DNA of 64,000 bases from an uncultured Candidatus Micrarchaeota archaeon (GCA_903828955.1 CAIKOA010000032.1:20141-84140), one strand, 5' to 3'; shown: positions 3,537 through 62,304, counted from the stretch's first letter. Numbers and translations are program-made. The notes: generated by a model not told the origin, from the letters alone.

Positions 3537-3932
3537 ATGATTTTCTTCAGCGCTTCCTCACCCCTTTCCGCAGAAAAACTGCTGGAACTAGCAAAGGAAA
3601 ACTCGTTCCTGCTTCTGAACCCCGAGAAAATCAACTGCGAAGAGGAGCTTCTTCTCGCGGAAAAGCTCACGGAAATTTCCATCAAGGAAAAGAAGGCAAT
3701 CGCAAAAACGAGGGAAAACGAATTCCTTCTCTGGCTTTCCGCAAAAAAAGACATTTCAAATGCATTCCGGGAATACGGGTTCAAATCCCCGGAAAAAATC
3801 CTGGTAATATCATTCTCGCAAACCAAAAAGCAGCTCCTCAAAATGCTGGAAGCAAAAGAGAAGAAACTAAATTTAAAAAAGAAAGCAACCCCTCTTGAAA
3901 TAGAAAGAATCTCCCTCTCAAGGGTTCTCTGA
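3537..3932 (+). CDS. cgi121: KEOPS complex subunit Cgi121
   Basis: Length is about 130 aa. FLLLNPEKINCEEELLLAEKL...KAIAKTRENEFLLWLSAKKDISNAFREYGFKSPEKILVISF follows the Cgi121 pattern (ILN.e.v....hvl.Ai..A.....iaKs...E.L...sg.rqI..Ai...G). The minus-strand ORF 3527..4039 is low-complexity antisense and was discounted. Confidence 0.6.
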   Translation: MIFFSASSPLSAEKLLELAKENSFLLLNPEKINCEEELLLAEKLTEISIKEKKAIAKTRENEFLLWLSAKKDISNAFREYGFKSPEKILVISFSQTKKQLLKMLEAKEKKLNLKKKATPLEIERISLSRVL

Positions 3933-3947
3933 CCACTTCCGTTTAAA

Positions 3948-5171
3948 ATGTTGCTGCCCATAGTATATAGTGGAAATTTCATGGGAGTTATAAAAAACGC
4001 TATAAAAGAAAGCGCGTTGCTGAAGATGGCCATAGGCATTGTTGCTGCCGGGGCTGTTATGGGAGTTTTATCCTATGGCGCCAGAAAGGCACTCAATATG
4101 CCGATGGATGAAGGCATCATGCGAACGCCCATCTCCGCGCAGGTGCAAACCAATTCCAAGCAGAAAAACACGGCCGAACTAATCCGGTTGTCGGATCAAC
4201 AATTTAAACAAACAATTGCAATGCTCGGCAGCAAGGCAACAAGCGATGTTGAAAAAGCAAGGGCCGCGCATATTCTGGGGGAAACAGGAGATAAAAGGGC
4301 CCTGCCGGCTCTTGTCAATGCGCTCCAGGATAATACGCTAGTTGATCCTGATGCGCGGGACGCGGTAGTATTTGCGCTTGCGAGGCTAAGAAGCAAAACA
4401 GCAATTCCATCTCTCGCTTGGGAATTGAAATCCCAGAATTCCACCCAGAATCCCAAGAACATCTACCCTCACCCCATAGATGTGGCATATGCGATTGGAG
4501 AGATTGCTGAAGCAAACCCCGGCAGCCCGGCATTATTTATAGCAGTGGACCCCCTGATTACTCTTCTGAGGAAAGGGCTTCCGGATAAAGTAGATCGAAA
4601 GTTTGCCATAATGCGTGAAGAGTTCGATCGTTACGATCGTTTGTTCGCTGGCTACGGTGGCCCGGCCAGGGACAAAGAAGCGGAGGAAAACTACGACAAA
4701 TACAGATACTGGGAGAACTTTATTCCCCATAGAATCGCAGCCGCGGAGGCTCTTGGAATGATAGGGAACAAAAAAGCAGTTCCCGAACTAATCAAGGCAA
4801 TGAGGTATGATTTTGTGCCAGTTAGGATGACGGCAGCGATAGCCCTTGGGGAAATAATCAGGAAGAACAAGGGCTACATGTATGTGGAAGGGGTATTGCC
4901 CCCGCTTTCATCCTTCGAAGTGTCCGAACGCGTGGTGGAAGCGAAACAAGAAGCGCTTAAAGGATTTGAAAATCCGGCATATGTGCCTGCATTAATCTCC
5001 CTGCTGGACCATGAATGGGGTTGCACGCGCCATGAAGCTGCTGTTTTGCTTGGCGAGCTTGGAGACAAGCGCGCATTGCCAGCACTGAAAAAACTTGCTG
5101 AAAACGACCCTAAGGAAGAGGTCAGAGAAGTTGCAAAAGAGTCAGTAAGCTGCATTCTGGAGCAGAACTAG
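3948..5171 (+). CDS. HEAT / PBS-lyase-like repeat protein with N-terminal membrane anchor
   Basis: There are multiple HEAT-like repeats (AHILGETGDKRALPALVNALQDN.., RIAAAEALGMIGNKKAVPELIKAMRYD.., RHEAAVLLGELGDKRALPALKKLAEND..). An N-terminal hydrophobic segment is present (MAIGIVAAGAVMGVL). Confidence 0.7.
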   Translation: MLLPIVYSGNFMGVIKNAIKESALLKMAIGIVAAGAVMGVLSYGARKALNMPMDEGIMRTPISAQVQTNSKQKNTAELIRLSDQQFKQTIAMLGSKATSDVEKARAAHILGETGDKRALPALVNALQDNTLVDPDARDAVVFALARLRSKTAIPSLAWELKSQNSTQNPKNIYPHPIDVAYAIGEIAEANPGSPALFIAVDPLITLLRKGLPDKVDRKFAIMREEFDRYDRLFAGYGGPARDKEAEENYDKYRYWENFIPHRIAAAEALGMIGNKKAVPELIKAMRYDFVPVRMTAAIALGEIIRKNKGYMYVEGVLPPLSSFEVSERVVEAKQEALKGFENPAYVPALISLLDHEWGCTRHEAAVLLGELGDKRALPALKKLAENDPKEEVREVAKESVSCILEQN

Positions 5172-5172
5172 C

Positions 5173-5218
5173 AACCCCTCTTGAAATAGAAAGGATCTCC
5201 CTTTCCCGCATTCTCTAA
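5173..5218 (+). pseudogene. Degenerate duplicate of the last ~45 bp of cgi121 (encodes ATPLEIERISLSRIL*), not joined to any ORF
   Basis: gcaacccctcttgaaatagaaaggatctccctttcccgcattctctaa is about 85% identical to 3888-3932 (gcaacccctcttgaaatagaaagaatctccctctcaagggttctctga), the end of cgi121. The two copies flank the HEAT-repeat gene. Confidence 0.6.
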
Positions 5219-5221
5219 ATT

Positions 5222-7371: not shown

Positions 7372-7512
7372 TTTCCCACCCGTTTATTTCTCCCCAAACA
7401 CTTTAAAATCATACGCTAACACTTAGCAACACACATTTCCCGCAGAAAAGTGCAGAAATCCCCCCTTCCCATAGGGATAATATTTATAAATCGTAATAGG
7501 GATACGAACGGT

Positions 7513-9294
7513 ATGGAGATGGATGAGCTTCTCATCAGCACAGGAGTAGATTCGCTTATTCGCCTCATAAAGGAAAAGAAGAGGATAGAGCTTACAATGG
7601 TTTCCAAGCTCCTCAACCTGCCCGCAAGCACCATTGAGGACTGGGCCCACATTCTCGAAGAGGAAGGCATCATAAAGATAGATTACCAGCTCACAAAAGT
7701 CTACTTTGTCTGGGCAGAGGCAACAATTGATGAAATCGAGCGCGAGCGGGGGGTATTCACAGCGCGCAAGGGAGCGGTAAACGAACAGGTCCAAAAGGTC
7801 CAGGGGGTACAGGAAGAAGGCGCAAAGGACCTGGAAGCATACGCAAAGGACATGGAGAAAATCACTGCAATGTTCTCCCAGAAGTTCGCAAGGCTTGAGC
7901 AGATTTCCGCCCAGCTGGACGAAACCTCCAAAAAGCGCGGAGAGAGCTCCAAAGTTTCCGAAGAAAAGCTCGATTCGCTCTTCTCAAAAATAGCCGAAGT
8001 GGAATCCTCCATGAAGGAACTCACGGCTCAGCTCAAGGAGGCCGGAGGCGCATTCGCGCACGAGGGAATCGAGGAGAAAATGGCCAGCATCAAGAAGGCA
8101 AAGGAAAACATGAAGGCGCTCGATTCCAAAGTGAATTCTCTCATGAAGAAGGTCGAGGAGGCCCGCACAAAAGCCCCCAAGGAGGGAAGCGTGGAGCTTG
8201 GCTCTATGAAATCCGATTTCGAAGGCTTGCGCAGGGAATTTGCAAAAATGCGCGAGGAATCCGAATACCTCCGCTCCGTAATTTCCGAATTCAAGATAAA
8301 TGCGGAAACCGTCCGCGACGCGCTCGGCCACATTACCGAACTTGGAAAGCATGCTGATGACAACCGCAGCCGCTTCCAGGACGAGCTCACCCAGATTGAG
8401 AAGATAAAGGCCGAGCTCCCCACACTTGAAAAGCGCATAAAGGAGGACCTTGCGGTCGCAGACCAGTATTCCGAAACAATCAGCGTTGCGCAGGAAGTTC
8501 TCCAGAACGTGCCCCCCAAAGAAGAGGTGCTTTCCCGCCTTGGGGAAATAGAGAAGGAAGAGGAAAGAATCACTACCGAATTCCGGCGCTTCGAGGCAAC
8601 CCTTTCAGGGGCAAGCGGAAACGCCCTCGCCCTAGGAGACCTCATAGATGAACTTGAAGACATGAAGGAGGAGGTGGAATCCGCACGCAGGCAGCTCTCG
8701 GAGGAAGCTGACGAAATCCTCTCCGCAATTGAAGAGGAGACCGCAACCTACGAAACATTCCAGAAAATAAAGGCAAAGACAAAATCCTCAATCGATGCCT
8801 ACCTTTCGCAGCTTGCAAAAATCCGCGAGGACGGGAAGCAGATAAAGGGAGAGCTCACCGCGCTTAGGGAGGAGACCTCCAAAAGAATGGAGGAATTGAT
8901 TTCTTCTGTTTCTCCCGCTTCCGCAAAGGAGGCGGCAGGGCTGCTCACAGAGCTCAAGGCAAAGAAGGCCGACTTAGACCGCATCCGCGCAATAATCGCG
9001 GACCTGAATGCGCGCTCGATGATGATTGAAAAGAACATCAAGCTCCTCTCAAGGGAAGCGCAGTTGATAGAATTGAGGGAAGCTTCCCTCGGATCAGGCG
9101 CCCCGGCTCAGAGAGAAGAGGAAAGGGGAGAGAAGGGAGAAAAAGGCGCAAAGCCTTCAGTTCCGGCTCCCGGAAGCAGGGAGGCAAAGGAAGCAAAAGA
9201 AAAAGCCTCCCTGAGCAAGAACGAGCAGGAAGAGTTCGAGTCCAAAAGGAAGGAATTAAAAGACCTGATACGCAAGTTATGGGAATCAGAATAA
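7513..9294 (+). CDS. wHTH (TrmB-like) N-terminal domain fused to a long coiled-coil; pilus-locus accessory protein
   Basis: The start is taken at MEMDELLIS. The ORF track offers an alternative upstream start at 7450. The N-terminal is STGVDSLIRLIKEKKRIELTMVSKLLNLPASTIEDWAHILEEEGIIKIDYQ. The rest is heptad-rich E/K/L/A sequence for about 500 aa. Confidence 0.6.
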   Translation: MEMDELLISTGVDSLIRLIKEKKRIELTMVSKLLNLPASTIEDWAHILEEEGIIKIDYQLTKVYFVWAEATIDEIERERGVFTARKGAVNEQVQKVQGVQEEGAKDLEAYAKDMEKITAMFSQKFARLEQISAQLDETSKKRGESSKVSEEKLDSLFSKIAEVESSMKELTAQLKEAGGAFAHEGIEEKMASIKKAKENMKALDSKVNSLMKKVEEARTKAPKEGSVELGSMKSDFEGLRREFAKMREESEYLRSVISEFKINAETVRDALGHITELGKHADDNRSRFQDELTQIEKIKAELPTLEKRIKEDLAVADQYSETISVAQEVLQNVPPKEEVLSRLGEIEKEEERITTEFRRFEATLSGASGNALALGDLIDELEDMKEEVESARRQLSEEADEILSAIEEETATYETFQKIKAKTKSSIDAYLSQLAKIREDGKQIKGELTALREETSKRMEELISSVSPASAKEAAGLLTELKAKKADLDRIRAIIADLNARSMMIEKNIKLLSREAQLIELREASLGSGAPAQREEERGEKGEKGAKPSVPAPGSREAKEAKEKASLSKNEQEEFESKRKELKDLIRKLWESE

Positions 9295-9310
9295 AATATA
9301 ATGATAAATA

Positions 9311-11164
9311 ATGGTGGAGAATATGCCAAAAAATGACAAACCCGCCCAAAAGGGAGAAAAGAAAAACCCCGCAAAGAAAAGCGTTAGCGACATCATCAAG
9401 AGAATACGCGAGTCCCAGATGAAGGCTTCCCAGGCAGCAGAAGAGCCGGAAGAACGCACCGAGGAACTCCGCCCTGAAGAGCCCGAAGAGGCCCCGGAAG
9501 AGGCGCCCGCAGAGGAAACCCCTGCGGAGGAAGCCCCGGAAAAGGACGAGGCAGAGGCGGTCCGCGACCAGATGGAATTCTCCGAGGAAAAGGAAACTCC
9601 CCCTGCCGAAGAGGAAACGCATGAACCCGCTTCTGAACAAGAACCCGCACAGGAACCCGAACCCGAAGAGGCCCCGCGTGGAAGAAGGGAAAAAGTGATC
9701 GATTCCTACACGTTCCTTAGCGAGTCAATCCCGGTAGAAGTTACGATACTTGAAACCGAGGACTTCGTCCCAATCTACTCGATTTCCATTCCGGGAATCG
9801 CAGGGGGGACAAAGCTCCTTCTTGAAACGAAGCTCAGAGGCGAATTAATTTCCGACGTAAAACTCGACATCACCGAAATCCTCGACCCGAAGAAGGTCGA
9901 GATGGTGAAATCCAAGTTCAGGGACTCCGCAATGAAGGTCCTTGCAAAGAACTTCCCGCAACTTCCGGAGGACAAGAGGAACATACTTGCCTCTTACCTG
10001 ATCCAGAACACGCTCGGGCTCGGGGAACTCGAAACCCCGCTCCACGATGAACTCCTGGAAGAAGTCGTAGTCAACAACTCCCGCGACCCCGCATGGGTCT
10101 ACCACAAGAAATACGGCTGGTGCAAAACCAACCTTAAACTCAAGAACGAGGAGAAGATTTACGACTACGCATCGCTGGTTGCAAGAAAGGTGGGAAGGCA
10201 GATCAACATCCTCGCCCCGCTTCTCGATGCGCACCTTCCAAACGGGGACCGTGTGAACTCCACTTTGTTCCCGGTTTCCAATTTCGGAAATACGCTCACG
10301 GTGAGAAAATTCTCAAGGAACCCCTGGACAGTCACGAACCTCATCCGCGGAAAAACCATTACTCCTGAAGTTGCAGCCACAATCTGGATGGCGGTGCAGA
10401 GCGAACTTTCCTTGATAGTTGCAGGAGGCACAGGAAGCGGAAAAACTTCCTTCCTTAACGCGCTCGCAGGATTGGTCCCCGCAAACCAGAGAATAATCAG
10501 CATTGAGGACACAAGGGAGCTCACCCTCCCCACATTCCTGCACTGGGTGCCCATGGTTACCCGTGAGCCCAATCCGGAAGGAAAGGGCGAAGTCACCATG
10601 CTTGACTTGATGGTGAACGCACTCCGGCAGAGGCCCGACCGCATAATCGTGGGAGAAGTAAGGAGGCAGAACGAAGCCGAAGTGCTCTTTGAAGCGATGC
10701 ACACCGGGCACTCGGTATATGCAACACTCCACGCGGATAATGCGGAGCAGGCAATCACAAGGCTCATTAACCCGCCAATTAATGTGCCCGCAGAAAACCT
10801 GGATGCGCTCGCAGGGATTGTCGTCCAATACAGGCACAGGCGCCAGAACGTAAGGAGGACGCTCGAATTTGCGGAAGTGGGCAAGAACGGAAAACTGAAC
10901 ACCGTATACCGCTGGGACTCGAAACGCGACGCAATGATAAAGTCCGGAAAGCTGGACAAGATCGCAACCACTATTGAACTCTACTCAGGCCTGAGCGACA
11001 AGGAAATCGATTCCGAAATCGCGGAGAAGGTGCAGGTGCTCAACTGGATGGTCAAGAACGGATACGAAGCCGTAAATGAAGTCGGCTCAATCGTTTCCAA
11101 CTACTACAAGACCCCGGACGAAGTGCTTGAAAGCGCGCGCAAGGGCAGGAAGTGGGAGTTCTGA
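9311..11164 (+). CDS. Type IV pilus / archaellum-family assembly ATPase (FlaI / PilB / GspE superfamily) with ~120-aa acidic N-terminal extension
   Basis: Walker A is GGTGSGKTSFLNALAG. The Asp box / Walker B (RIISIEDTRE ... DRIIVGEVRRQNE) and His box (HTGHSVYATLHAD) are present. The first ~120 aa are E/P/A-rich low complexity. Confidence 0.9.
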   Translation: MVENMPKNDKPAQKGEKKNPAKKSVSDIIKRIRESQMKASQAAEEPEERTEELRPEEPEEAPEEAPAEETPAEEAPEKDEAEAVRDQMEFSEEKETPPAEEETHEPASEQEPAQEPEPEEAPRGRREKVIDSYTFLSESIPVEVTILETEDFVPIYSISIPGIAGGTKLLLETKLRGELISDVKLDITEILDPKKVEMVKSKFRDSAMKVLAKNFPQLPEDKRNILASYLIQNTLGLGELETPLHDELLEEVVVNNSRDPAWVYHKKYGWCKTNLKLKNEEKIYDYASLVARKVGRQINILAPLLDAHLPNGDRVNSTLFPVSNFGNTLTVRKFSRNPWTVTNLIRGKTITPEVAATIWMAVQSELSLIVAGGTGSGKTSFLNALAGLVPANQRIISIEDTRELTLPTFLHWVPMVTREPNPEGKGEVTMLDLMVNALRQRPDRIIVGEVRRQNEAEVLFEAMHTGHSVYATLHADNAEQAITRLINPPINVPAENLDALAGIVVQYRHRRQNVRRTLEFAEVGKNGKLNTVYRWDSKRDAMIKSGKLDKIATTIELYSGLSDKEIDSEIAEKVQVLNWMVKNGYEAVNEVGSIVSNYYKTPDEVLESARKGRKWEF

Positions 11165-11175
11165 GGTAAACGCAA

Positions 11176-12761
11176 TGGATTTCAGGTCCTCTGTAGAAGA
11201 TATCGCGGCAATCGAAAAGAATGCGGCAGAATACAAACCTGCAAAAGGCGATACCTACAAGGCGGAGCGCGTCATAGAGATGTCCCCCCAGGAAATCCTG
11301 GACATGGGCTATGATGAGGCACTCAACCAATACGACCGAATTGAGAAAATAATCAGCGCCTCCAGCATGGACGTCGGCCTAATTGGCACCGGAATGCAGC
11401 CAGAAGCGCCCGCAGAGGAAGCGCCACCTGCAGAAGTTAGCGCAGAGGCGCAAAACGCGGCAGCGCAGATGCGCTCAATAAGCGCCGCAAGCGCCCGCGA
11501 ATCTGAAATTCTCACAAAACCCAAAGAGGAGAGGCCTGCAATTTCTCTTCAGGGGCAGAAGCCCGTGGCCCCCCAGGCGCCTGCAAAGGCGCCGCCCGCA
11601 GAAGAAATGCCTCTTCCAGAAGAGGAAAGGGCTCCGCCTTCCGCTCCTTCACCCGCTCCTTCATTAATGAAGAGGAAAATGCCAAGGGAAGAGGTTCCCC
11701 CGGAAGAGGAGAAGGAAGAGGCTCTTCCCGAAGCCCCGGCCCCAATAACTGAAAAAATGCCACCCGCTCCTCCAAGAGAGTATGTTCCCCCAGCCCCCCG
11801 CTTTGTTGAAAAGCCCGGGGCTCCTCTCCCGGAGATAGGAATGCCCGCCCTGCTTTCAGAATCCCCTGAACGGAGCGCGGAAGCAACAATAAGCCGCCTT
11901 GAGCAGCAATTCCAGGCCCAGTTCGCCCCGGCCGCGGGAAAGGCTGCAGGGGCAGGAAAGAAAGTTGACACGGAAGGCGCTAAGAAGAGGATGATGGAGC
12001 TCACGCGCGAGCTTTTCCGCGAGCGCTCCTTTGACCGCCGCGAAGAGATAAAGAAGGAAATCGTCCTACTCAAAAACATGATTGCGGATGCGGGGGTTGC
12101 CCCTAAGGCCGGCGCAGGTGCAGGCGCTCCCGCAGCCGGCGCATTCCTCACCGCGCTAAAAGGAAGCCAGGAATACGAGCTTTCCGCAGCAAAAAAAACA
12201 ATCCGGGAGGCCTTTGAGCAGAACCTCAAATCCCTCTCATCGCAGATGGAGATGCAGATGGCCCTTGAAAAGAAGGAAGAGGCAGTGGACTCCTTTGAGG
12301 GCAATGCGGTTTCACTCGAGCAGAGGCTCATCACAATCATTGAAAAATACCAGATTTTCATCACCGCAAAGCACAATGCGGAACTCTCCGCGCTTTCGGC
12401 AAAGGGCCTTTCCTCAGCGGAATCCGAAAAGATGCGCGAAACGCTCCGCGACCGCTATGCCCATGATTTCTCCTCGCTCAAGAATACAATAGGCGAAGAA
12501 ATACACTCAAAGGTCCAGAACGCAAAGGAAACGCTTACAGAGCAAGCAGGGGACCCGAAAGCAAGGGCAATTGCGCAGGTAAACCGGGCAACGGAGGAGG
12601 AACTCCTGAACCTGCTCCAGTCAACGGACCCGCGCAGCTATGAGAAGTATGCGCGGGGCGAGCTTACGCGCGCAGAGGCCCTCACTTCCGCAAGAAGGAG
12701 GATGGCCCTTCAGGCAGGCCTTGATGAGGATACCATAAATAAACATTTTGGTGGTAAGTAA
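11176..12761 (+). CDS. P/A/E-rich + coiled-coil hypothetical protein between the ATPase and platform genes
   Basis: The ATG at 11176 is 9 nt after the ATPase stop. The ORF track's 11076 start overlaps the ATPase. The N-half is Pro/Ala/Glu-rich and the C-half is helical (EELLNLLQSTDPRSYEKYARGELTRAEAL). Confidence 0.55.
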
Positions 12762-15296: not shown

Positions 15297-15330
15297 ATTT
15301 TTTCTTTTTATTTTAATTTCTTTTTCTGCA
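15297..15330 (+). terminator. Oligo-T tract after the pilin gene
   Basis: aattttttctttttattttaatttctttttctgc lies immediately after the TAA stop. Confidence 0.3.
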
Positions 15331-15337
15331 ATAACTA

Positions 15338-15367
15338 GCTCAAGTGCCTACCATTCGAGCCTTCCCC
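15338..15367. pseudogene. Degenerate duplicate of the 3' end of apgM (about 75% identity to 15530-15566)
   Basis: ctcaagtgcctaccattcgagccttccccagag aligns with ttaagttccaaccatccttgctttacccatagcg, the last codons plus stop of apgM on the minus strand. Confidence 0.4.
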
Positions 15368-15514
15368 AGAGCCCTTCAGGGGGAGCGCCCCCTAAAGGTC
15401 TTCATCGTGCCACCAAGGCACTGGAATGCAACGAATATTATGCGATAATTCCCTCTCCTTCTGCGCACACTAGGTGGCCTTGGCGGCGCGACACCCCAAG
15501 CAACCCCCCATAAT
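15368..15514. repeat. Hairpin-bearing small repeat element, long copy A
   Basis: It starts agagcccttcagggggagcgccccctaaaggtcttcatc and ends aagcaaccccccataa. The same termini occur at 19853-19910. It contains the perfect hairpin AGGGGG-AGCG-CCCCCT (15378-15393). Confidence 0.5.
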
Positions 15515-15532
15515 CTGATTAGTTAAATTTGA

Positions 15533-16729
15533 TTAAGTTCCAACCATCCTTGCTTTACCCATAGCGTTCAGCATTATGGGAAGCAAATCCCATCCGTCTA
15601 TGTGCCCCAATCCTCCGCCCATGCACATAACCTCAGAGAACTTCTTCTGCGTTCCCGTTCTGAACCCAGGCCCAAAAGCAAGAAGCGGAACCTCGTCCCC
15701 GGTATGCTTTCCAAATTTGCACGCAGTGGAGTGGTCCCCGGTAATAATGATGTTTGCCCCGCTCTTTCTCAAAAGCGGAACCAATTCCTTATCCACCCTC
15801 TCAATCATTTTCTTTTTCCCTTCGAAATTCTTGTCATGCGAAAAGCTGTCCGTCGCCTTCACGTGCACAAAAACAAAATCATGGGTTTCCAGCGCTTTAA
15901 TCGCCGCATTCCCCTTCGCCTTCAAATCCGTATCCTTTGAGCCGGTCGCCCCAGGAACCGCAATTACATCCATTCCAATATATTCCGCAACTCCCTTGTA
16001 GAGCGCGCCTCCCGCAACGCATGCGCCCGTAATCCCGTGCATCTTCTCAAAAGGCTCTACTTCCCTATATGCTCCAGCTCCTCTGCAAAGAACCGCATTC
16101 GCAGGAAGTTTCCTCCCGGAATTTTCCGGGGCTCTGGAAAGCGCATCCATCGCTCTCCTAGTAAACTCATTAAGAACGCGCGCAGTCCTTTCCGCACCCG
16201 CTTTCAATGCATGCGACTGCACTACCGCTCCCAATTCATGCGGGTCGGTAGGGGAAATCTCCGCGGAAAGCCCGCTCCCATGCAGCACAACCACTCCCCT
16301 GTGCTCCACAGTGCTCACAAATAAAACTTCAACCCCCTCAATATTCATTTTCCCTATCTTCTGCTGCAATTTCTTCCCTAATTCAGTAGGAATTCTTCCG
16401 GCTCTCCTATCGATAATCTGCCCGTTGCGCACGGTTGCAAAATTCGCCCTAAAAGCCACATCTCCCCTATGCAATTTTATTCCAGACCCAAGAGCTTCCA
16501 GAGGGCCTCTTCCCCCATAGAATTCCCAGTAAGGATATCCAAGAAGAGTTAAATGCGAAGTATCGCTTCCAGGCACATTCCCCCTTCCTATAGGTGAAAG
16601 CAGCCCAAGAATCCCGCTCTTGGCCATTTTATCCATATTCGGCTTCTTAGCCGCAGAAAGGGGCGTCCTTCCCTTTGCGTCCTGAAGGTCCCCGAGCCCG
16701 TCCATTATAAGTAAAATGCCTTTTGACAT
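15533..16729 (-). CDS. apgM: 2,3-bisphosphoglycerate-independent phosphoglycerate mutase, archaeal type
   Basis: ILLIMDGLGD...GRTPLSAAKKPNMDKMAKSGILGLL...IGRGNVPGSDTSHLTLLGY are ApgM metal-binding motifs. Length is 398 aa. Confidence 0.9.
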   Translation of the reverse strand: MSKGILLIMDGLGDLQDAKGRTPLSAAKKPNMDKMAKSGILGLLSPIGRGNVPGSDTSHLTLLGYPYWEFYGGRGPLEALGSGIKLHRGDVAFRANFATVRNGQIIDRRAGRIPTELGKKLQQKIGKMNIEGVEVLFVSTVEHRGVVVLHGSGLSAEISPTDPHELGAVVQSHALKAGAERTARVLNEFTRRAMDALSRAPENSGRKLPANAVLCRGAGAYREVEPFEKMHGITGACVAGGALYKGVAEYIGMDVIAVPGATGSKDTDLKAKGNAAIKALETHDFVFVHVKATDSFSHDKNFEGKKKMIERVDKELVPLLRKSGANIIITGDHSTACKFGKHTGDEVPLLAFGPGFRTGTQKKFSEVMCMGGGLGHIDGWDLLPIMLNAMGKARMVGT

Positions 16730-16832
16730 GCTTGGGGTTCTTCATTAAGAGATTAAAAGTTTTGCATGCCTTTACAGTGGAAAGGAACCCTCCAAATCCT
16801 TTTTAATCCTTCCAACTATACCCATAGATGCT

Positions 16833-18884
16833 ATGTCTGGGGAGGATATTTCTTCATTAGTGTCCGTGTTCGAAGACTTCTTCACAGGCATCTATAAAGA
16901 ACGCATCAATAATGTTCTTGCTTCTTACCCGAACCGCCGCAGCCTTGAAGTAAACTACGACGATTTGGACAAATTCGACACCGCAGTTGCGGATAAACTC
17001 GTAAAAGAGCCCGAAGTGCTCACCGAAGCAGCCGAGGAGGCAATCCGCAACATGAACCTCACCCCTGCTTCCGGAGGCGAATTCAAGCCGCACGTGCGCT
17101 TCTTCAATGCTCCCGGAGGCGACAAGCTCACAATAGAACGGCTTAGTTCAGAACGCTTAAACGAACTCGTCTCTTTCCGCGGAATCGTAACCAAACGCAC
17201 GGACGTAATGCACAAAGTTAAGATTGCCCATTACGCCTGCCAGGCATGCGGCTCAGAACTGGATGCAGCCGTGACCCGCTCATTCAAGCCGCCCAAAATG
17301 TGCCCTTCCTGCAAAAAGCTCGCCTTAATCCCAAATGAGGAAAAATCCCGCTTCACGGATATGCAGAAATCCGAAACACAGGATTTGCTTGAGCGCGTTC
17401 GCGGAGGCGCCCCAGCCGCAAAAGTGGAACTCTGGTTCGAAGACGACATCGTGAACACGGTAACTCCCGGAGACAATATAGAAATAACCGGAATTCTCCG
17501 CATAAAGCCCACCCAGAACCTGAAGCAGAAAAACGATTTTCTTTTCACCCGCTACATAGAAGTAGTGCATGCAAAGAGCCTCAAGAGGGATTTCGAGGAG
17601 ATCGAGCTCACCCGCGAAGACATCGACCACATAAAAGAGATGGCCAAAGACCCGGACATAGAAAAGAAAATATTCTCTTCAATCGCGCCCGCAGTATATG
17701 GGTACACGGAAGTGAAGAAAGCCCTCGCGCTCCAGCTTTTCGGAGGCACCCGCGACAAGATGATGAAGGGCGGCGCGATGGTGAGGGATGACATCCACCT
17801 TCTCCTTATTGGAGACCCGGGTATTGCTAAAACCAGGTTCCTGAACTCCTCGGTTGCAATCGCGCCGAAAGCAATCTATGTGAGCGGAAAGAGCGTTTCC
17901 GGAGTCGGCCTCACCGCTTCCGCGGAAAAAGATGAGCTTGGGGATGGGGGCTGGACCCTCAAGGCCGGCGCCCTCGTTCTCGCTTCCGGCGGAATAGGCG
18001 CAATTGATGAATTCGACAAAATAGATGAGGAAGACCGCGGATCCCTTCACGAAGTGATGGAATCACAAACGGTTTCAATAGCAAAGGCCGGAATAGTCGC
18101 AAAATTCCGCGCCAAAACAGCAATCATCGCAGCCGCAAACCCGAAGCACGGCCGCTTCAACCAAACCAAGAACCTCGCAGACCAGTTCGATGTCCCGCCA
18201 TCCCTCCTTTCCCGTTTCGACCTTATTTTCCCGATAATTGACGTCCTTGATGAAGAAAAGGACCTGAACCTCGCAGAGCATATTCTCACTTCGCACATAA
18301 ATGCCGCAAAGGGAAAAATGCATGAAGACAGCGCAGACGAAATCGACCGCGAACTCCTTAGGAAATATATTTCTTACGCCCGCAGGGAGATAAAACCGGT
18401 TCTCAGCGAGGCTGCAAAGAACCGCATAAAGGATTTCTACCTTGATTTGAGGAGAAGGGGAAAATCCAGCGGCTCAGTCCCCATCACCCCCAGGTATTTG
18501 GAAGGGATGGTCCGCCTTTCCGAAGCGCACGCAAAGATGCGCCTTTCCGATGTTGTCGAACTTGCGGATTCGGAAGCGGCAATCGGCCTAATGGAATATG
18601 TCCTCAAGAAAGTGATGACCGACCAGGAAACCGGCCGCTTCGATGTGGACATAATCACCACTGGAAAAGCCCGCTCGCAAGTTGAAAGAATAGAAACAAT
18701 TCTAGATATCCTAAAAGAGAAAACCCGCGACCAGGAAGCGGTTCCCAGGGACGAAGTCCTCAGAGCCGCGGAAGCTTCCGGAATGGACCCCTCCCTTGCA
18801 AAGCGCATCCTCCAAGAACTAATGCACAAAGGCGAAGTTTACGAAAAAGAGCCGGGCTGGATAGCGCTGGTAGGAGAGAAATAG
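16833..18884 (+). CDS. mcm: Minichromosome maintenance (MCM) replicative helicase
   Basis: Walker A is LLIGDPGIAKTRFL. The Zn finger is CQACGSELD...CPSCKK. The arginine finger / MCM box is IIAAANPKHGRFN...SLLSRFDLIF. Length is 683 aa. Confidence 0.9.
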   Translation: MSGEDISSLVSVFEDFFTGIYKERINNVLASYPNRRSLEVNYDDLDKFDTAVADKLVKEPEVLTEAAEEAIRNMNLTPASGGEFKPHVRFFNAPGGDKLTIERLSSERLNELVSFRGIVTKRTDVMHKVKIAHYACQACGSELDAAVTRSFKPPKMCPSCKKLALIPNEEKSRFTDMQKSETQDLLERVRGGAPAAKVELWFEDDIVNTVTPGDNIEITGILRIKPTQNLKQKNDFLFTRYIEVVHAKSLKRDFEEIELTREDIDHIKEMAKDPDIEKKIFSSIAPAVYGYTEVKKALALQLFGGTRDKMMKGGAMVRDDIHLLLIGDPGIAKTRFLNSSVAIAPKAIYVSGKSVSGVGLTASAEKDELGDGGWTLKAGALVLASGGIGAIDEFDKIDEEDRGSLHEVMESQTVSIAKAGIVAKFRAKTAIIAAANPKHGRFNQTKNLADQFDVPPSLLSRFDLIFPIIDVLDEEKDLNLAEHILTSHINAAKGKMHEDSADEIDRELLRKYISYARREIKPVLSEAAKNRIKDFYLDLRRRGKSSGSVPITPRYLEGMVRLSEAHAKMRLSDVVELADSEAAIGLMEYVLKKVMTDQETGRFDVDIITTGKARSQVERIETILDILKEKTRDQEAVPRDEVLRAAEASGMDPSLAKRILQELMHKGEVYEKEPGWIALVGEK

Positions 18885-18935
18885 CAATCCCCCAATAATT
18901 CCGCTTTTTATTCCTTCCCACGGTAATACCTCCCA

Positions 18936-19760
18936 ATGAATTTATTGGTAAAATTAATCGGAATGTTCCTCATAGCCCAATTGCTGGGGATTTACGCGGG
19001 CTCCTACATAATAGAGGATGCAAAAAACAACGAAGTAGTTTCGTATATGCTCATAGAGAATTCCGGCCCGGAAACAATCCCCTGGTTCGTATTCGCAGTC
19101 CTTTTCGGGGCAGGAATTTTCCTGGTGCTTGCCAGATTGAAAATCCCATTCCTGTTCACCCTTCTGGAAATTGCAGTAATCAGCGCAACCTCATCAATCC
19201 TGTTCTATTCCTTCATAAAACCCGTTCTCGGCCTTACAATTGAATCAATGGCTGCCGCAATCCTTCTCGCTTTCGTTCTTGCAGTTGCAAAGCAGTTCTT
19301 CCCCAACCTGAAAAATGCAGCCGCCCTTCTCTCAAGTGCTGGCGCAGGCGCAGTCTTTGGCTTCACCTTTGGTTTCCTTGCCGCAATGCTCTTCCTCTTA
19401 GTTCTTGCAATCTACGATTACATTTCGGTCTACAAAACCAAGCACATGGTCACGATGGCAACCGAAATAGTGAAGCGCAACATGGCATTTACAATTACCG
19501 CAAAGGAAAAGCTCCCTTCAGGAAAGGAGTCCAGACTTGATTTAGGCACCGGAGACCTCTCCATTCCCATAATGGCGGAAGTTTCCGCCTATTCAATAAG
19601 CCCCCTCCTTTCCGGCTGGGCGCTCGCAGGCGCGCTCGCAGGAGTCGGAATCGTCCTCTTCACCGCCTGGAAGAGGAAGCAGATTCTCCCCGCGCTTCCG
19701 CCTATTGCACTAGGGATTATTCTATTCACATTATTTGCGTTGCTTACGGGGCTATATTAA
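18936..19760 (+). CDS. Presenilin / signal-peptide-peptidase homolog (intramembrane aspartyl protease, PSH-like)
   Basis: It is polytopic, with YD (VLAIYDYISVY), GxGD (LGTGDLSIP) and PAL (ILPALPPIALG) motifs in the expected order. Confidence 0.7.
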   Translation: MNLLVKLIGMFLIAQLLGIYAGSYIIEDAKNNEVVSYMLIENSGPETIPWFVFAVLFGAGIFLVLARLKIPFLFTLLEIAVISATSSILFYSFIKPVLGLTIESMAAAILLAFVLAVAKQFFPNLKNAAALLSSAGAGAVFGFTFGFLAAMLFLLVLAIYDYISVYKTKHMVTMATEIVKRNMAFTITAKEKLPSGKESRLDLGTGDLSIPIMAEVSAYSISPLLSGWALAGALAGVGIVLFTAWKRKQILPALPPIALGIILFTLFALLTGLY

Positions 19761-19777
19761 TTCTAAATTTCAATCCG

Positions 19778-19852
19778 CCCAAGATTAAAGCACTCTAAAA
19801 TCAATAACCACTTGCATCTTAGAAGCAGAATAAGGCCTGACCTCCCTCTCAA
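19778..19852. pseudogene. Degenerate duplicate (~80% identity) of the last ~70 bp of trm5
   Basis: ttaaagcactctaaaatcaataaccacttgcatcttagaagcagaataaggcctgacctccctctcaaag aligns with 19911-19980, ttaatctattttaaaatcaataactacttgcatcttagacgcagagtacggtcttacttccctcgcaaat. Confidence 0.6.
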
Positions 19853-19910
19853 AGAGCCCTTCAGGGGGAGCGCCCCCTAAAGTGCTTCACCCCCAGCAAC
19901 CCCCCATCAC
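19853..19910. repeat. Hairpin-bearing small repeat element, short copy B (internal-deletion derivative of copy A)
   Basis: agagcccttcagggggagcgccccctaaagtgcttcacccccagcaaccccccatcactt shares both termini with 15368-15514. The hairpin lies at 19863-19878. It abuts the trm5 stop at 19911. Confidence 0.55.
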
Positions 19911-20960
19911 TTAATCTATTTTAAAATCAATAACTACTTGCATCTTAGACGCAGAGTACGGTCTTACTTCCCTCGCAAATACAAATTCAATTTTTCTTCC
20001 GGCTTTACGCGCAGCCTCCTCCACAAACCCGCGCGCCTGCGTAAACCCATTTTCCACATCCACAAAAGAATAGAAGTGCACAATGCACCCGGGTTTCGCA
20101 GCAAGGAAAGCAACATCCAAAAACTCGTGCGCATCCTTTGGGAGCGGCATCGCAATCCGATCAGCCCACCCTACAAACCGTTCCTTCACAACCGCCCGCG
20201 CATCCCCGAGAATCGCTTCCACATTCTTCAGCTTATTCAATCTGATGTTCCCCTCAAAATAGCGGACCGCATCCGGGTTCAGTTCAATCCCAACCACGTG
20301 CGCACAAGGCGAAAATTTCCCAATTTCCAGTGCAAAAGGGCCCACCCCTGCAAAAGGAACGAGCACCTTTTCCCCATCCTTCACAAGTTCGCACAGCCTC
20401 TTCCTCTCATGCGAAAGCCTGGGAGAAAAATACACCTTCCCAACATCCAGGTTCATGCGCACCCCATTTTCCGAGTAAGTGGTTTCCGTTCTTTTTTCCC
20501 CTGCAAGGTGCGCAAGCTTCGTAATCCGAAACTCCCCCTCCCGCCCGCCCGCTTTCTGCAAAACAACTTTTGCGCGCGCTTCAGATTCCAATAAAATCTC
20601 TCCAATCTCCGTCTTCTTCCCTTCCAATTCCCGGGGAATATCGACAATAACTATGTCCCCAACAATATCATAAGAGGAAAGCACCCCCTTGGCATGCTCT
20701 TCCCCAAGCAATTCGATTAATTTCTGCCTGAAATTCTTCCTAATTTCGCGCGCCTCAAGCTCAACCCGTACAATTTCCAATCCAGAGCCGGAAAGTTTCT
20801 CTTCCGCTTCCTCTCCCCCAACTACCGGAAGGTAGACATGCTCTCCCCTCTGCATTGGAAATCTCATCTTATCCATTAATCCCATCCCCACGAGTTTTTT
20901 GCGCGTCTCTTCCGCATTCTTTTTCCGGATGCGCACCGCAGGGCCCTTTTTCTTAACCAT
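19911..20960 (-). CDS. trm5: tRNA (guanine37-N1)-methyltransferase Trm5 / TYW2 family (Met-10 domain)
   Basis: YDIVGDIVIVDIP...YFSPRLSHERKRL...VLVPFAGVGPFALEI are the Trm5/Taw2 family motifs. Confidence 0.8.
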   Translation of the reverse strand: MVKKKGPAVRIRKKNAEETRKKLVGMGLMDKMRFPMQRGEHVYLPVVGGEEAEEKLSGSGLEIVRVELEAREIRKNFRQKLIELLGEEHAKGVLSSYDIVGDIVIVDIPRELEGKKTEIGEILLESEARAKVVLQKAGGREGEFRITKLAHLAGEKRTETTYSENGVRMNLDVGKVYFSPRLSHERKRLCELVKDGEKVLVPFAGVGPFALEIGKFSPCAHVVGIELNPDAVRYFEGNIRLNKLKNVEAILGDARAVVKERFVGWADRIAMPLPKDAHEFLDVAFLAAKPGCIVHFYSFVDVENGFTQARGFVEEAARKAGRKIEFVFAREVRPYSASKMQVVIDFKID

Positions 20961-42716: not shown

Positions 42717-43217
42717 ATGAAGGGGCAATATTTCAGCTTTGATGCGGTGATCGGCGCTTCCATATTCATACTTACCTTAATCGCAATAATGTCCTACTGG
42801 TATGGGGTGAGCAATTCAATGGAGCAGCAGCAATCCTCTCTTGCAAAGGAAGCGATAAGGATTGCAGACATACTCTATTCCCCCCAGGAAATTCCCTACG
42901 GCTTAACTCTCGGCTGGAACGACAAGCACCTGAATGCAAGCAAGGTCTATTATCTGTGCTCTTCAGGAGAAAACCCGGCAGTTGCGCTTGGCTCAGCATA
43001 CAACGTTACAATCCAGTTCAAGAGCCTCGAAACCGGCCCACACAACTGGGGCGGATGCATCTGGAGCAGCTCAGGCAGCACGGATACCGTGCACATCTCC
43101 TCCAACAACATCTACAAAATGCGCAGGACCGCCTCCCTCTACAGGGAGGACGGAAGCACTGAACGCGCATACGTGGACATCTACGTATATGAGCCTACCG
43201 CTCCAGAAAAGCCCTAA
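42717..43217 (+). CDS. Type IV pilin-like protein (class III signal peptide)
   Basis: The N-terminus is MKGQYFSFDAVIGASIFILTLIAIMSYWYG. The start abuts the previous stop. Confidence 0.65.
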   Translation: MKGQYFSFDAVIGASIFILTLIAIMSYWYGVSNSMEQQQSSLAKEAIRIADILYSPQEIPYGLTLGWNDKHLNASKVYYLCSSGENPAVALGSAYNVTIQFKSLETGPHNWGGCIWSSSGSTDTVHISSNNIYKMRRTASLYREDGSTERAYVDIYVYEPTAPEKP

Positions 43218-44575
43218 ACCAGTTCCCCGAAAAGGCTCCCATAATTTGAATCCTTTATCTTTACCCGCGCCCATTCCCCCAATTTAACCTTCTTTTTTCC
43301 AAGTATGCAGACCTGCTTATAGTTTTGCATTCTCCCGGTGGGGGTTTTCTGCATTTCCGTAATCAGCACATCCGCTTCCATTCCCACATACCCGGAATTC
43401 TTTTCCGCAGAAATCCTCCGCACAAGCGCGCTCATTTCCGTGCTCCTCCGTTTTATCTCCTCGGTCTTCAACTTCTTGAGCGTGCTCGCATAAGTTCCCC
43501 TGCGCGAAGAATATTTGGATACATTCACTATGTCCGGGCGCACCCTCTTAATTAATTTCTTGGTTTCCTCAAAATCTTCTTTATTCTCGCTAGGATACCC
43601 GACAATGATATCCGTGGAAATAACCGTATCCGGGAACTTCTCCCGCACTTTGCCCACCACGAATTCAAAATCCGCAACAGTATGCGCACGGTTCATCTCT
43701 TGCCGCACCTTCTCGCTCCCGGTTTGCACAGGAAGGTGCAAAAACCTGTAGAATTTCGGATTCCCAAGCATCTCAATAATTTCCGGAATGAATTTCTTTG
43801 CATGCCCCGGATTAATCATTCCGAGCCTGACCCGAAAATCCCCATCAAGCGAAAGAACTTCCTTCATCAATTCCGGCAGAGAAGAATTAATGTCTAGCCC
43901 ATATGCCCCGGTATCCTGCCCGGTTATCTGGATTTCACGCGCCCCCATCTCTACTCCCCTTTCCACAGAGCTCCTTACCCATTGCCTGCTGTGGCTCAAG
44001 AGAACCGGCCGCGCAATTTTCGTCTGGCAAAAATGGCAATTCCCCACGCACCCTTCCTGCACAGGAACCCTCAATATGGGCCTGGTGAATATTCTCGGAA
44101 GCCCCTGCTTCCCCTCAATCTCGCTGAATTTGCGCGGCTCCCCCCGCTTTGCGCATTGCACCGCCTCAAAAATGCGCGCAATAGCGCCCGGGTGCACAAT
44201 CACTGCGGTTGGGTCCGCCTTCCGAACCCGCTCCTCATTAATCCCCAGGCACCCCGCAACCACAATCTTCTTCCCCTTCCCCTTCAATTCAATTATTCTG
44301 GAAATGATCTTATTCTCGGTTGCCTCCTTCACAGTGCAGGTGTTCAAAATAAAGGTTTCCGCATCCGGCACAAGAGAATATCCCGACTCAATCAGCACTC
44401 CCTTCATTATGTCGCTGTCTGCCTGGTTGAGCGTACACCCATAAGTCTCAATCCAAACCGCGGAGGGGGAGCGCCCCCTCCCCAGTTTTAGGTTAATCCT
44501 GACCCTCCCCTCATCACCTGGATAGTCGGCATGTTTAGCATTCAGCTGATTATCTCTCTTCTCTATCTTAGGCAT
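43214..44575 (-). CDS. mtaB: tRNA methylthiotransferase MtaB / CDKAL1-like (radical SAM MTTase with TRAM domain)
   Basis: The MTTase N-domain is VWIETYGCTLNQADS. The radical SAM motif is CVGNCHFC. A C-terminal TRAM domain is present. The first ~40 aa of the ORF are probably over-extended. The real start is likely near VWIETYG (about 44440). Confidence 0.85.
   Translation of the reverse strand: MPKIEKRDNQLNAKHADYPGDEGRVRINLKLGRGRSPSAVWIETYGCTLNQADSDIMKGVLIESGYSLVPDAETFILNTCTVKEATENKIISRIIELKGKGKKIVVAGCLGINEERVRKADPTAVIVHPGAIARIFEAVQCAKRGEPRKFSEIEGKQGLPRIFTRPILRVPVQEGCVGNCHFCQTKIARPVLLSHSRQWVRSSVERGVEMGAREIQITGQDTGAYGLDINSSLPELMKEVLSLDGDFRVRLGMINPGHAKKFIPEIIEMLGNPKFYRFLHLPVQTGSEKVRQEMNRAHTVADFEFVVGKVREKFPDTVISTDIIVGYPSENKEDFEETKKLIKRVRPDIVNVSKYSSRRGTYASTLKKLKTEEIKRRSTEMSALVRRISAEKNSGYVGMEADVLITEMQKTPTGRMQNYKQVCILGKKKVKLGEWARVKIKDSNYGSLFGELV
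44462..44481. repeat. Third copy of the GGGGG-AGCG-CCCCC hairpin (extended palindrome GGAGGGGGAGCGCCCCCTCC)
   Basis: The identical 16-mer agggggagcgccccct is found at 15378 and 19863. Here it is in the 5' leader / over-extended N-terminus of mtaB. Confidence 0.4.
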
Positions 44576-44667
44576 GATTCTTCTCCTTAAAAAAATTAAA
44601 ACAGAGGGTGCCTCCGAGCCCCATTAAAGGGAATGCCCGGAAGCACCATCCACAAGCTTCAGTTACT

Positions 44668-61521: not shown

Positions 61522-62304
61522 GTGCAAAGGATGGAAGGCACTGCAAGTGCAGCATTACACATAGTGGATACGGTACCCCGTGCGCGGATAGCCGCCTCCT
61601 ACACCGGAAATCTCCCCCGCGTCTCCTTCTGGGAAGCAAAAAGATTGGCTGCCGAAAAGAATGGAAGCCTGATTTCCGCTAAAAGAATGGTAAATCTCTT
61701 CAAGCTGGTTTCAACCCTCTCCTGCTCAGACTCCACAATCCTGAAAGAATTTGAAGGGGGGATAAGGCTGAACAGCCCGAACTTCAACTGGTTTTTTGAA
61801 GGAACTTCCAGGAAGGAGCTCGCAGCCACTGTTGCGGGCACAAGCCCAGCCTGGGTCGATGCAATCGTCCTTCTTGGCCCATTTCCGGAGCAGGTTAGCA
61901 CTTTTGGCAAAGAGGAAAACAGAACGGTTTTGGAGCTTCCCAGGCACCTGGTAGGCTTAAGCGACATAATGCTCCTCGATTCCGGCTCCTTCACAGATGA
62001 AAGGGATGCAAATGAAAAAAGAGTGAAGGTAGCCGAAGGAGCGGAGCCAATGCTTCTCGGAGAAAGATCCGGAGGCGCCACATTATTTCTCGATGAAAAA
62101 GGAAATTTCACCCATTCTTCTGAGCACAGCAAGAGGAAAACCGACCCCAGGATTCCGGTATTCATCCACACGAATGCGGAAAGAATAAGCCGCCTCATTT
62201 GCGGGATTACCAGCACCATGAGGGATACAAACGAATCTCTCGCAATAAGGCTTTCAACGCTTAACGAGAACGAGAGGATGGGCGCAGTATTCGAATTTCC
62301 CTAA
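61522..62304 (+). CDS. Hypothetical protein
   Basis: Only ORF length and protein-like composition support it. A competing antisense ORF exists at 61599..62219. Confidence 0.3.
   Translation: MQRMEGTASAALHIVDTVPRARIAASYTGNLPRVSFWEAKRLAAEKNGSLISAKRMVNLFKLVSTLSCSDSTILKEFEGGIRLNSPNFNWFFEGTSRKELAATVAGTSPAWVDAIVLLGPFPEQVSTFGKEENRTVLELPRHLVGLSDIMLLDSGSFTDERDANEKRVKVAEGAEPMLLGERSGGATLFLDEKGNFTHSSEHSKRKTDPRIPVFIHTNAERISRLICGITSTMRDTNESLAIRLSTLNENERMGAVFEFP

Follow-up and report, generated by a model that had tools for sequence, protein, structure and literature searches.

The 64,000-nucleotide (64-kb) stretch of DNA analysed here, referred to throughout as the window, comes from an uncultured Candidatus Micrarchaeota archaeon (GCA_903828955.1 CAIKOA010000032.1:20141-84140) and contains two copies, A and B, of a shared element of about 55 nucleotides (nt), termed E, which lie beyond the 3' ends of the housekeeping genes apgM and trm5, respectively. 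E acts like a miniature integrative element that is related in sequence to the bulge-helix-bulge (BHB) introns of archaeal tRNA genes, and the two window copies fail the defining tests of both. At each locus the body of the gene continues into a homologous but diverged copy of its own last codons (X'), beyond which lie a short spacer and then E, and on the far side of E a second, native gene end (X) is left stranded. Our confidence in this anatomy and in its evolutionary polarity is high, and our confidence in the mechanism by which it arose is moderate to low. An earlier note on the same DNA had proposed integration into gene 3' ends, an idea that was right in outline and is partly supported by what follows.

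The feature that draws attention to E is a 16-mer hairpin, AGGGGGAGCGCCCCCT, with three exact occurrences on the + strand of the window (at 15378, 19863 and 44464) where 0.1 would be expected at up to two mismatches. Two of the three belong to a larger shared element, as the earlier note had recognised and as exact matches, shared ends and a covariance model of E built from nine copies all confirm. The 5' ends of copies A and B are identical (agagcccttcagggggagcgccccctaaag) and the copies have the 3' tail agcaaccccccat in common. In the predicted fold copy B opens with AGAGCCC, continues into an interrupted hairpin of 13 bp and closes with a C-rich tail (...AGCAACCCCCCAT), and it is matched whole by the covariance model; copy A has the same 5' module and tail, separated by an imperfect hairpin of 87 nt, and is matched in two halves on either side of that insertion (scores in Table 1). 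The termini previously proposed thus stand, with the correction that copy A ends at 15511 rather than 15514 and that copy B is 55 nt in length. E contains a single hairpin and its tail is unstructured in the fold; its termini (AGAGCCC... and ...CCCCCCAT) are not inverted repeats. Neither E nor the 57-165 bp of DNA between X' and X contains an open reading frame (ORF). Rfam returned only noise, whether for the whole window at gathering thresholds or for the copy A region at E<=10, and a scan of viral contigs did not find E. Apart from the bare hairpin at 44464, searching with the covariance model added no copy in the window and none in 14 loci, a weak match within a 16S rRNA gene being dismissed. 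Relatives of the 87-nt hairpin of copy A were likewise absent from the window and the fetched loci (blastn) and from viral contigs (scan).

In the direction of each gene, the gene body (Y) is followed by X' with its stop codon, a spacer of 3 or 21 nt, E in antisense orientation, X with its own stop codon, intergenic DNA (W) and a convergent neighbour, so that both copies of E lie between convergent genes, as gene calls confirm and the earlier note had stated. That note placed E immediately after the apgM and trm5 stops; it does begin downstream of them, by 21 nt for copy A and 3 nt for copy B, and is antisense to both genes, which are on the minus strand. The inserted unit of E, spacer and X' measures 126 bp at trm5, where it sits 69 bp upstream of the stop, and 193 bp by repeat spacing at apgM, where it sits approximately 27 bp upstream of the stop. 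A second assembly of the same organism has the same 150-bp spacing. The two trm5 ends are identical at 56 of 69 positions (81%), a score that none of 200 shuffles reached, and their 13 nt differences produce four amino acid differences and keep the stop, a result as good as which was obtained in 4.6e-4 of trials with random substitutions. The two apgM ends are identical at 19 of 27 positions; all eight differences are synonymous (CGA versus AGG for Arg; TGA versus TAA for the stop), an outcome that occurred in none of 100,000 random trials (p<1e-5). The proposed duplication of gene 3' ends therefore exceeds shuffled background at trm5 and does not do so at the nucleotide level at apgM (30 of 200 shuffles scored as high), although the apgM duplication, as read from its translation, is decisive despite that score. 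The second copies had been described as degenerate or decayed. Their differences are coding-constrained and their stop codons are kept; they are intact, in-frame coding copies and not decayed.

To establish which end is native, six relatives in total were compared at the two loci: L019 (protein more than 90% and gene DNA 86% identical), L016, L011 and L012 are syntenic at trm5, and L011, L017 and L018 at apgM. In all six E is absent and the gene has a single end. In these empty sites the convergent stops of trm5 and the neighbouring SPP gene are 6-26 nt apart and apgM is separated from its neighbour by 35-64 nt. As every syntenic relative compared has an empty site, this comparison shows both insertions to be derived in the lineage of the window. 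X of trm5 differs from L019, L011, L012 and L016 at 7, 9, 11 and 13 of 69 nt, respectively, and X' at 17, 13, 19 and 22. Six of the seven differences between X and L019 are synonymous, with one amino acid changed (p=5.6e-4), and the last 27 nt are identical. Close relatives of Trm5 end in FEREV..RVL and further top matches in FEKEV..RV., in both cases like X, whose encoded C-terminus is the consensus of the family, and at trm5 and apgM alike the DNA beyond X aligns with the 3' intergenic DNA of relatives. Since X is the copy closer to the relatives and the native 3' flank lies beyond it, alignment shows the stranded copy to be the native end and the gene-contiguous X' to be incoming, inserted together with E and the spacer. 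The order of gene, replacement 3' end, element and displaced native 3' end suggested by the earlier note is thereby upheld, and by the same comparisons the trm5 X behaves as an ordinary orthologue under purifying selection.

The coding constraint on the differences between the two ends argues that X was coding until recently and that X' diverged as coding sequence elsewhere. Two features of the trm5 X', Ala at position 2 (FAR) and the final KID, are native only in distant Micrarchaeota Trm5 clades. Loci at which Trm5 ends in KID or starts with FAR provided no donor lineage: they are without E, and their DNA, which differs from X' at 28-38 of 69 nt, has diverged too far for such a role. The 150 nt of trm5 upstream of X' are 77-83% identical to relatives, as against 77-81% for the rest of the gene, and at the resolution of this comparison no foreign tract is visible in trm5 past X'. 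The simplest reading is that X' is probably a xenologous copy that arrived with E. From the intactness of X we infer, in addition, that the insertions are recent.

E is not confined to the window. Exact-pattern scans recovered seven further genuine copies from other Micrarchaeota metagenome-assembled genomes (MAGs) and metagenome contigs, identified here by L numbers; three other candidates from the metagenome scan (L004, L007 and L010) are unrelated hairpins and were discarded as false positives. Across the nine copies, which come from different MAGs and metagenomes, mean column identity is 93%, and E recurs at nine loci of at least eight contigs with its 5' boundary always the same. The targets comprise two tRNA loop positions, the 5' end of dnaK, gene 3' ends (trm5, apgM) and intergenic DNA, and the bases directly 5' of E differ in every copy. 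There is one exact match in each of three genomes, and the window holds two full copies.

Six of these copies, including A and B, lie outside tRNA genes, and in five of the six (A, B, L001, L003 and L005) the best local alignment between left and right flanks stops exactly at the first base of E. The full X / E-spacer-X' / Y architecture is clear in four of the six, weaker in copy A and absent in L009. The flanking repeats are 21-69 bp, of unequal lengths, and 70-97% identical. Each non-tRNA copy also lies in sense, 0-93 nt past the stop of a co-directional ORF, those upstream of L003 and L005 being short and doubtful. At L001 the repeat takes in the last part of the upstream gene together with the ribosome-binding site, start codon and initial five codons of dnaK; here X' renews the start of a gene and not its end. 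Between E and this new start of dnaK (5233-5304) lies a spacer of 60-70 nt, which contains remnants of a T-loop intron 3' module (AGGGGAGCGAAAAT) and A/T-rich stretches, and could be a new promoter for dnaK, cut off by the insertion from the upstream gene. At L003 the flanking repeats are 39 bp with one mismatch. A motif, GCATGTGCC[A/G]CACGTGTTCAA, with the palindrome CACGTG inside it, occurs three times around E at this locus (5860-6110); two of the occurrences correspond to the 39-bp repeats and contain the six bases, AGAGCC, with which E begins. Downstream at L003, an ORF of 577 aa has weak similarity to the excisionase-type HTH_17 domain (E=0.0012, under the Pfam cut-off). At L009 (521-1153) E overlaps the TGA stop of an ORF with a HEAT_2 domain (cTGAGCCC...). 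The 5' end of E has microhomology with the target at the junction in L003 (AGAGCC, six of six bases) and in apgM (ATAGCG).

These flanks bear directly on whether the repeats were made by the insertion itself. A transposon-like insertion that generated a target-site duplication of 21-69 bp, identical at birth and diverged in place since, would explain the single mismatch in the L003 repeats and the presence of a duplication at L003 and L005, where there is no coding sequence to rescue, and the variable repeat length and A-rich spacers do recall target-primed or repair-mediated insertion. Such an origin predicts, however, neutral decay of the stranded copy, whereas X of trm5 is orthologue-like with no non-synonymous change of its own and all eight differences at apgM are synonymous; moreover, copies with 19-30% difference in their flanking repeats have E sequences that are approximately 100% identical. 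For copies A and B these results refute such an origin unless the stranded copy is expressed, and overall we consider it distinctly improbable.

Xenology of X' would equally follow if E had been inserted beside the gene in another lineage and the E-bearing allele had then entered by host recombination, with homology on one side, an illegitimate joint on the other and no dedicated recombinase, only end-duplicating products surviving in a compact genome of convergent genes. Convergent stops in the empty sites are indeed 2-26 nt apart, such that joints outside the gene would damage the neighbour, and the microhomology at L003 and apgM also counts in its favour. Yet the illegitimate joint would have to fall exactly at the first base of E at five independent loci with no donor flank, no foreign tract is seen in trm5 past X', and recombination at about 80% identity is inefficient, making this account rather unlikely. 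Homology-facilitated illegitimate recombination of foreign DNA has been described in naturally transformable bacteria; it resembles the present case in combining one homologous joint with one of little or no homology and in importing short foreign segments, and differs from it in that the non-homologous joint here is always at the same base of E. To our knowledge the process is undocumented in DPANN archaea.

A third instance of duplicated gene ends in the window, at cgi121, does not involve E. The gene-contiguous 3' end of cgi121 is followed by a HEAT-repeat gene and then by a stranded second 3' end, the stop of which is 2 nt from that of a convergent gene (5222-6859). The two cgi121 ends differ at 7 nt and one amino acid (p=0.0017) and are coding-constrained, and the HEAT-repeat genes of relatives occupy another locus and are not orthologous to that of the window. 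The cgi121 locus therefore follows the same logic of replacement end, cargo and displaced native end, with a protein-coding cargo of 1.3 kb, and the occurrence of this arrangement without E points to the duplication as a feature of integration and not of E.

The 1.3-kb unit at cgi121, with its protein gene in the same order, might also be taken to indicate that each copy of E is the eroded remnant of a large integrase-bearing plasmid or provirus in a gene 3' end, most of which was deleted later. The succession of replacement end and displaced end is the classical signature of integrase-mediated integration into the 3' ends of tRNA and protein genes, and is common ground between this account and our own. 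Independent deletions, on the other hand, would not converge on the same unit, with the same 5' boundary abutting X, at nine loci in different genomes and targets; the DNA from X' to X holds neither pieces of an integrase nor other traces of an element, the differing targets offer no single att site, and E is in addition a tRNA intron. An eroded provirus or plasmid is thus unlikely, and two terms of the earlier note are set aside with it: integration was not site-specific, if by that one att site is meant, the targets being unrelated, and E is not a MITE-sized remnant (MITE, miniature inverted-repeat transposable element), since the same unit of about 55 nt with the same 5' boundary recurs at nine loci with unrelated targets.

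The relationship of E to introns rests on the three remaining copies, L002, L006 and L008, which lie in sense orientation inside tRNA genes at intron positions (Table 1). In-silico splicing of L008 yields a canonical tRNA; that of L002 leaves the anticodon loop one base short and is called tRNA-?(Arg/Thr) by ARAGORN, the assignment as Thr(CGU) being read from the sequence. A relaxed helix-bulge-helix (hBH) motif can form at the junctions of each tRNA copy, in which TTCG pairs with CGAA or TGAA, part of a 3' module conserved in the intron, to form the central 4-bp helix, with the T-stem or anticodon stem serving as outer helix. The EndA of Micrarchaeum, of the epsilon2 type, cleaves relaxed hBH motifs at 59/60 in vitro, and over half of Micrarchaeum tRNA genes are interrupted (PMC3239211). 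The 3' module GGGGAG(TTGGG)CGAAAA is common to L002 and L006, and its remnants in the spacers of L001 and L003 tie these non-tRNA copies to an intron ancestor. By these motifs E belongs to the archaeal tRNA intron family, and its splicing from the tRNAs is predicted. The tRNA-Met at L006 (minus orientation, approximately 215 nt upstream of E) apparently has introns at three sites: the D-loop, 37/38 and 59/60. Its D-loop intron starts TAGAGCCCCTTTTC..., forms a hairpin and resembles the 5' end of E (AGAGCCCTTCAG...), which is itself similar to the D-stem sequence of the tRNA, TAGAGCGCC. ARAGORN, which misses intron-bearing tRNAs unless they are spliced by hand, finds no tRNA in the window.

Given that E is a genuine intron module in tRNAs, E and X' together could be a BHB intron of an mRNA or antisense transcript, the splicing of which restores the C-terminus encoded by X, both copies then being translated and selected. 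Introns are known in archaeal mRNAs, e.g. that of cbf5 in Crenarchaeota, and splicing of this kind would explain why X is perfectly conserved and why X' of trm5 has unusual residues. A scan for canonical geometry, with bulges of 3 nt and a central helix of 4 bp, nevertheless found no BHB or hBH motif in the register of the repeats or above shuffles on either strand at either window locus, and the two junctions stay apart in minimum-free-energy folds. We regard an mRNA intron as highly improbable.

The tRNA copies also weigh on the view that E is a plain recurring structural motif, whether a terminator or a repetitive extragenic palindromic (REP)-like hairpin, with the similarity of its flanks due to coincidence or to an artefact of assembly. 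A GC-rich perfect hairpin between convergent genes, and the consistent position of the non-tRNA copies 0-93 nt downstream of a co-directional ORF, would suit such a motif, and the earlier note had suggested a bidirectional terminator. There is, however, no T-run after the stem on either strand, a terminator scan of the hairpin gave no call on either strand, and E occurs inside tRNA genes, which together speak against an intrinsic terminator or REP-like hairpin. Relatives have empty sites, the flanking repeats are real both statistically and translationally, the second assembly of the same organism retains the 150-bp spacing, and independent assemblies from other studies carry E. A recurring motif with coincidental or artefactual flanks is accordingly scarcely credible.

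Our own proposal, to which we assign about an even chance of being correct, is that E is a non-autonomous module of the intron family that is mobile now, or was recently, and that has integrated with integrase-like logic. A unit of E, short spacer and X' would insert into a housekeeping gene; X', as a homologous but pre-diverged copy of the last codons, would fuse in frame and keep the gene whole, and the native end X would be pushed beyond E and left intact. The logic would be that of Campbell- or integrase-type integration, in which att-like homology on the incoming DNA restores the gene and the joint falls at the gene-internal edge of the homology. As the integrated DNA is only E, with no coding capacity and no recombinase nearby, it would have been moved in trans or by host recombination or repair. 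We infer the recombination mechanism and its catalyst, for which candidates would be a recombinase acting in trans, homologous plus illegitimate recombination by the host that exploits the first base of E as a defined end or, more speculatively, a DNA copy of the circular RNA produced by intron splicing. In tRNA genes E would be tolerated because the relaxed BHB motif allows it to be spliced out.

Several observations weigh against this proposal. Pfam scans of 28 of the 52 window ORFs, and of the ORFs near other copies, identified no gene for a recombinase, a reverse transcriptase or any other mobility function, and neither a free or circular form of E nor a donor lineage has been observed. 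There are only nine copies, one or two per genome, and mobility is read from their distribution and from the empty sites. No flanking target copy is detectable at L009, the sole non-tRNA copy outside the X/X' architecture, and what looks like X' in the tRNA copies is, at least in part, the conserved intron 3' module and not a copy of the target. The proposal does not account for the gain of a new X' for each new target, and selection on X by some unrecognised route would weaken the case for a recent insertion.

A broader proposal, which we advance tentatively and consider somewhat unlikely, is that E exemplifies a new class of minimal, non-autonomous integrative modules derived from BHB introns. 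Each lineage of the module would carry a target-end 'homing arm' that steers it into the orthologous gene of a new host and takes the place of the displaced end, the module becoming an intron where it enters tRNA loops. Archaeal introns would on this basis be gained when a circularised unit of intron size, perhaps a copy of the RNA circle left by splicing, integrates into DNA in Campbell-like fashion, and the X / E..X' / Y loci would be its first direct traces.

Comparison with known systems places E between two of them. It resembles BHB tRNA introns in its presence at 37/38 and 59/60 in three tRNA genes with a relaxed hBH, in the near-identity of its sequence in different tRNAs and positions, and in a host clade whose endonuclease cuts relaxed 59/60 motifs; unlike such introns, the two window copies and four others lie outside RNA genes, and the window copies are situated past stop codons, antisense and without a BHB, and carry a copy of the target that replaces the end of a protein gene. 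The window copies, having neither RNA-gene context nor BHB motif, are therefore not introns. With integrative elements of the SSV/pNOB8 type, whose integration into gene 3' ends has been reviewed (PMC3293823), E has in common the order of gene body, element-supplied 3' end, element and displaced native end, the joint at the gene-internal edge, and the use of tRNA anticodon loops and T-loops among its sites. In contrast to them the integrated DNA is only 57-165 bp, with no gene and no integrase, its homology blocks are 70-81% rather than nearly 100% identical, and one family uses many targets; with no integrase and no single att site, the copies are therefore not classical integrative elements. 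MITEs are similarly small and non-coding, have internal-deletion or insertion variants (as in copies A and B) and are presumably mobilised in trans. E differs from them in its very low copy number and in flanking repeats that are long, unequal and pre-diverged, and a MITE is ruled out by the lack of terminal inverted repeats and of a short target-site duplication of fixed length. An IS200/IS605-derived element is ruled out by the single hairpin and the lack of a conserved target 5' of E, and a diversity-generating retroelement by differences that are of all types, mostly at third codon positions and not adenine-specific, by the lack of a reverse transcriptase domain in the ORFs checked, and by targets that are housekeeping enzymes.

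The E family makes testable the question of how archaeal BHB introns are gained and move from gene to gene. Similar introns in different tRNAs of Thermoproteales led to the proposal of 'transposition' (Fujishima et al. 2010), for which the mechanism is given as unknown and presumably at the DNA level (PMC4090602), and in the model of Sugahara et al. (2012) an integrating element delivers the intron to the tRNA gene (PMC3293823). In the literature searched there is no description of E, of intron-family sequences in protein-gene ends with replacement ends, or of DNA-level footprints of intron movement of the X / E..X' / Y kind. Here the same sequence of about 55 nt occurs both as a tRNA intron, at two positions, and as apparently recent, sharp-edged DNA insertions that carry a copy of their target and are matched by empty sites in close relatives. 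The X-E-X' loci offer a rare trace, in the DNA itself, of the way in which intron-like sequences of archaea may move. They also show that essential genes in reduced DPANN genomes can have their C-termini rewritten by very small pieces of non-coding DNA (trm5 and apgM, and cgi121 with another cargo), and automated annotation will miss both the stranded and the probably xenologous gene ends.

Table 1. Coordinates of E, its target genes and the duplicated gene ends (window positions; copies in tRNA genes are listed last).
Feature	Position	Strand	Basis
E copy A, 5' module: AGAGCCC and 13-bp interrupted hairpin (core 16-mer 15378-15393)	15368..15404	+	covariance match 15369-15406, 46 bits
Long imperfect hairpin, 87 nt, copy A only, between 5' module and tail of E	15405..15491	+	fold
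E copy A, C-rich 3' tail CACCCCAAGCAACCCCCCAT	15492..15511	+	covariance match 15474-15513, 27 bits
E copy B, 55 nt, hairpin module and C-rich tail, antisense to trm5	19853..19907	+	covariance match, 89 bits
Bare hairpin 16-mer, no other part of E	44464..44479	+	covariance match, 18 bits, model positions 11-26 only
apgM, cofactor-independent phosphoglycerate mutase, target gene of copy A	15533..16729	-	Pfam Metalloenzyme and PhosphMutase domains
X, stranded native 3' end of apgM, encodes GKARMVGT and stop	15340..15366	-	translation, comparison with L017, L018 and L011
Native 3' intergenic DNA beyond apgM X (left side on + strand)	15297-15339		alignment with L017 3' region
Spacer of 21 nt, E copy A to replacement apgM end	15512..15532	.	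sequence reading
X', replacement 3' end of apgM, contiguous with gene, also encodes GKARMVGT and stop	15533..15559	-	
trm5, tRNA m1G37 methyltransferase, target gene of copy B	19911..20960	-	Pfam
X, stranded native 3' end of trm5, encodes FEREVRPYSASKMQVVIDFRVL and stop	19785..19853	-	matches C-terminus of close relatives
Spacer of 3 nt (cac), E to X' of trm5	19908..19910	.	sequence reading
X', replacement 3' end of trm5, contiguous with gene, encodes FAREVRPYSASKMQVVIDFKID and stop	19911..19979	-	17/69 nt differ from L019
Native spacer of 24 nt, trm5 X to SPP stop	19761..19784		
cgi121 gene	3537-3932		
Gene-contiguous cgi121 3' end, encodes ATPLEIERISLSRVL and stop, no E; followed by HEAT-repeat gene 3948-5171	3884..3932	+	
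Stranded second cgi121 3' end, encodes ATPLEIERISLSRIL and stop, no E	5170..5219	+	
E at L002, in tRNA-Thr(CGU), canonical intron position 37/38			sequence reading
E at L006, in tRNA-Met with two further introns, T-loop, 59/60			sequence reading
E at L008, in tRNA-Asp(GTC), T-loop, 59/60			in-silico splicing gives canonical tRNA-Asp(GTC)

The bare 16-mer at 44464-44479 is translated (..GRGRSPS..) as part of an N-terminal extension, 37 aa in length, of an ORF for a MiaB-like radical SAM protein (43214-44575, minus strand). Nearly all of the 150 best homologues are without this extension, their alignments beginning at query residue 39-41, and a weak duplicate of the first codons of the gene (VWIET versus VRINL) is present across the hairpin. 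The 44464 hairpin may be the relic of an old E insertion at a gene 5' end, comparable to that at L001. A long, GC-rich imperfect hairpin (GGTGCCTCCGAGCCCC...GGGAATGCCCGGAAGCACC) at 44606-44650, in the short stretch between the genes for a Toprim (DnaG-like) protein and the MiaB-like protein, is unrelated to E in sequence.

Housekeeping genes assigned by Pfam in the window include those for MetRS, MCM, a DnaG-like protein, Cdc6 and LeuRS. The MCM of the relative L011 (7930-11457, 1175 aa) contains an intein with a LAGLIDADG domain, and the MCMs of the window (16833-18884, 683 aa) and of L012 (684 aa) are without one. In a radical SAM protein encoded at 62301-63962 on the minus strand, a LAGLIDADG_3 match close to the N-terminus may mark an intein or what is left of a fused homing endonuclease. 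Finally, most direct-repeat families of the window are accounted for by long, acidic, Pro/Glu-rich repeats of low complexity in two ORFs, 5222-6859 (minus strand) and 7450-12761 (plus strand), which adjoin genes for a type IV secretion/pilus ATPase and T2SSF.

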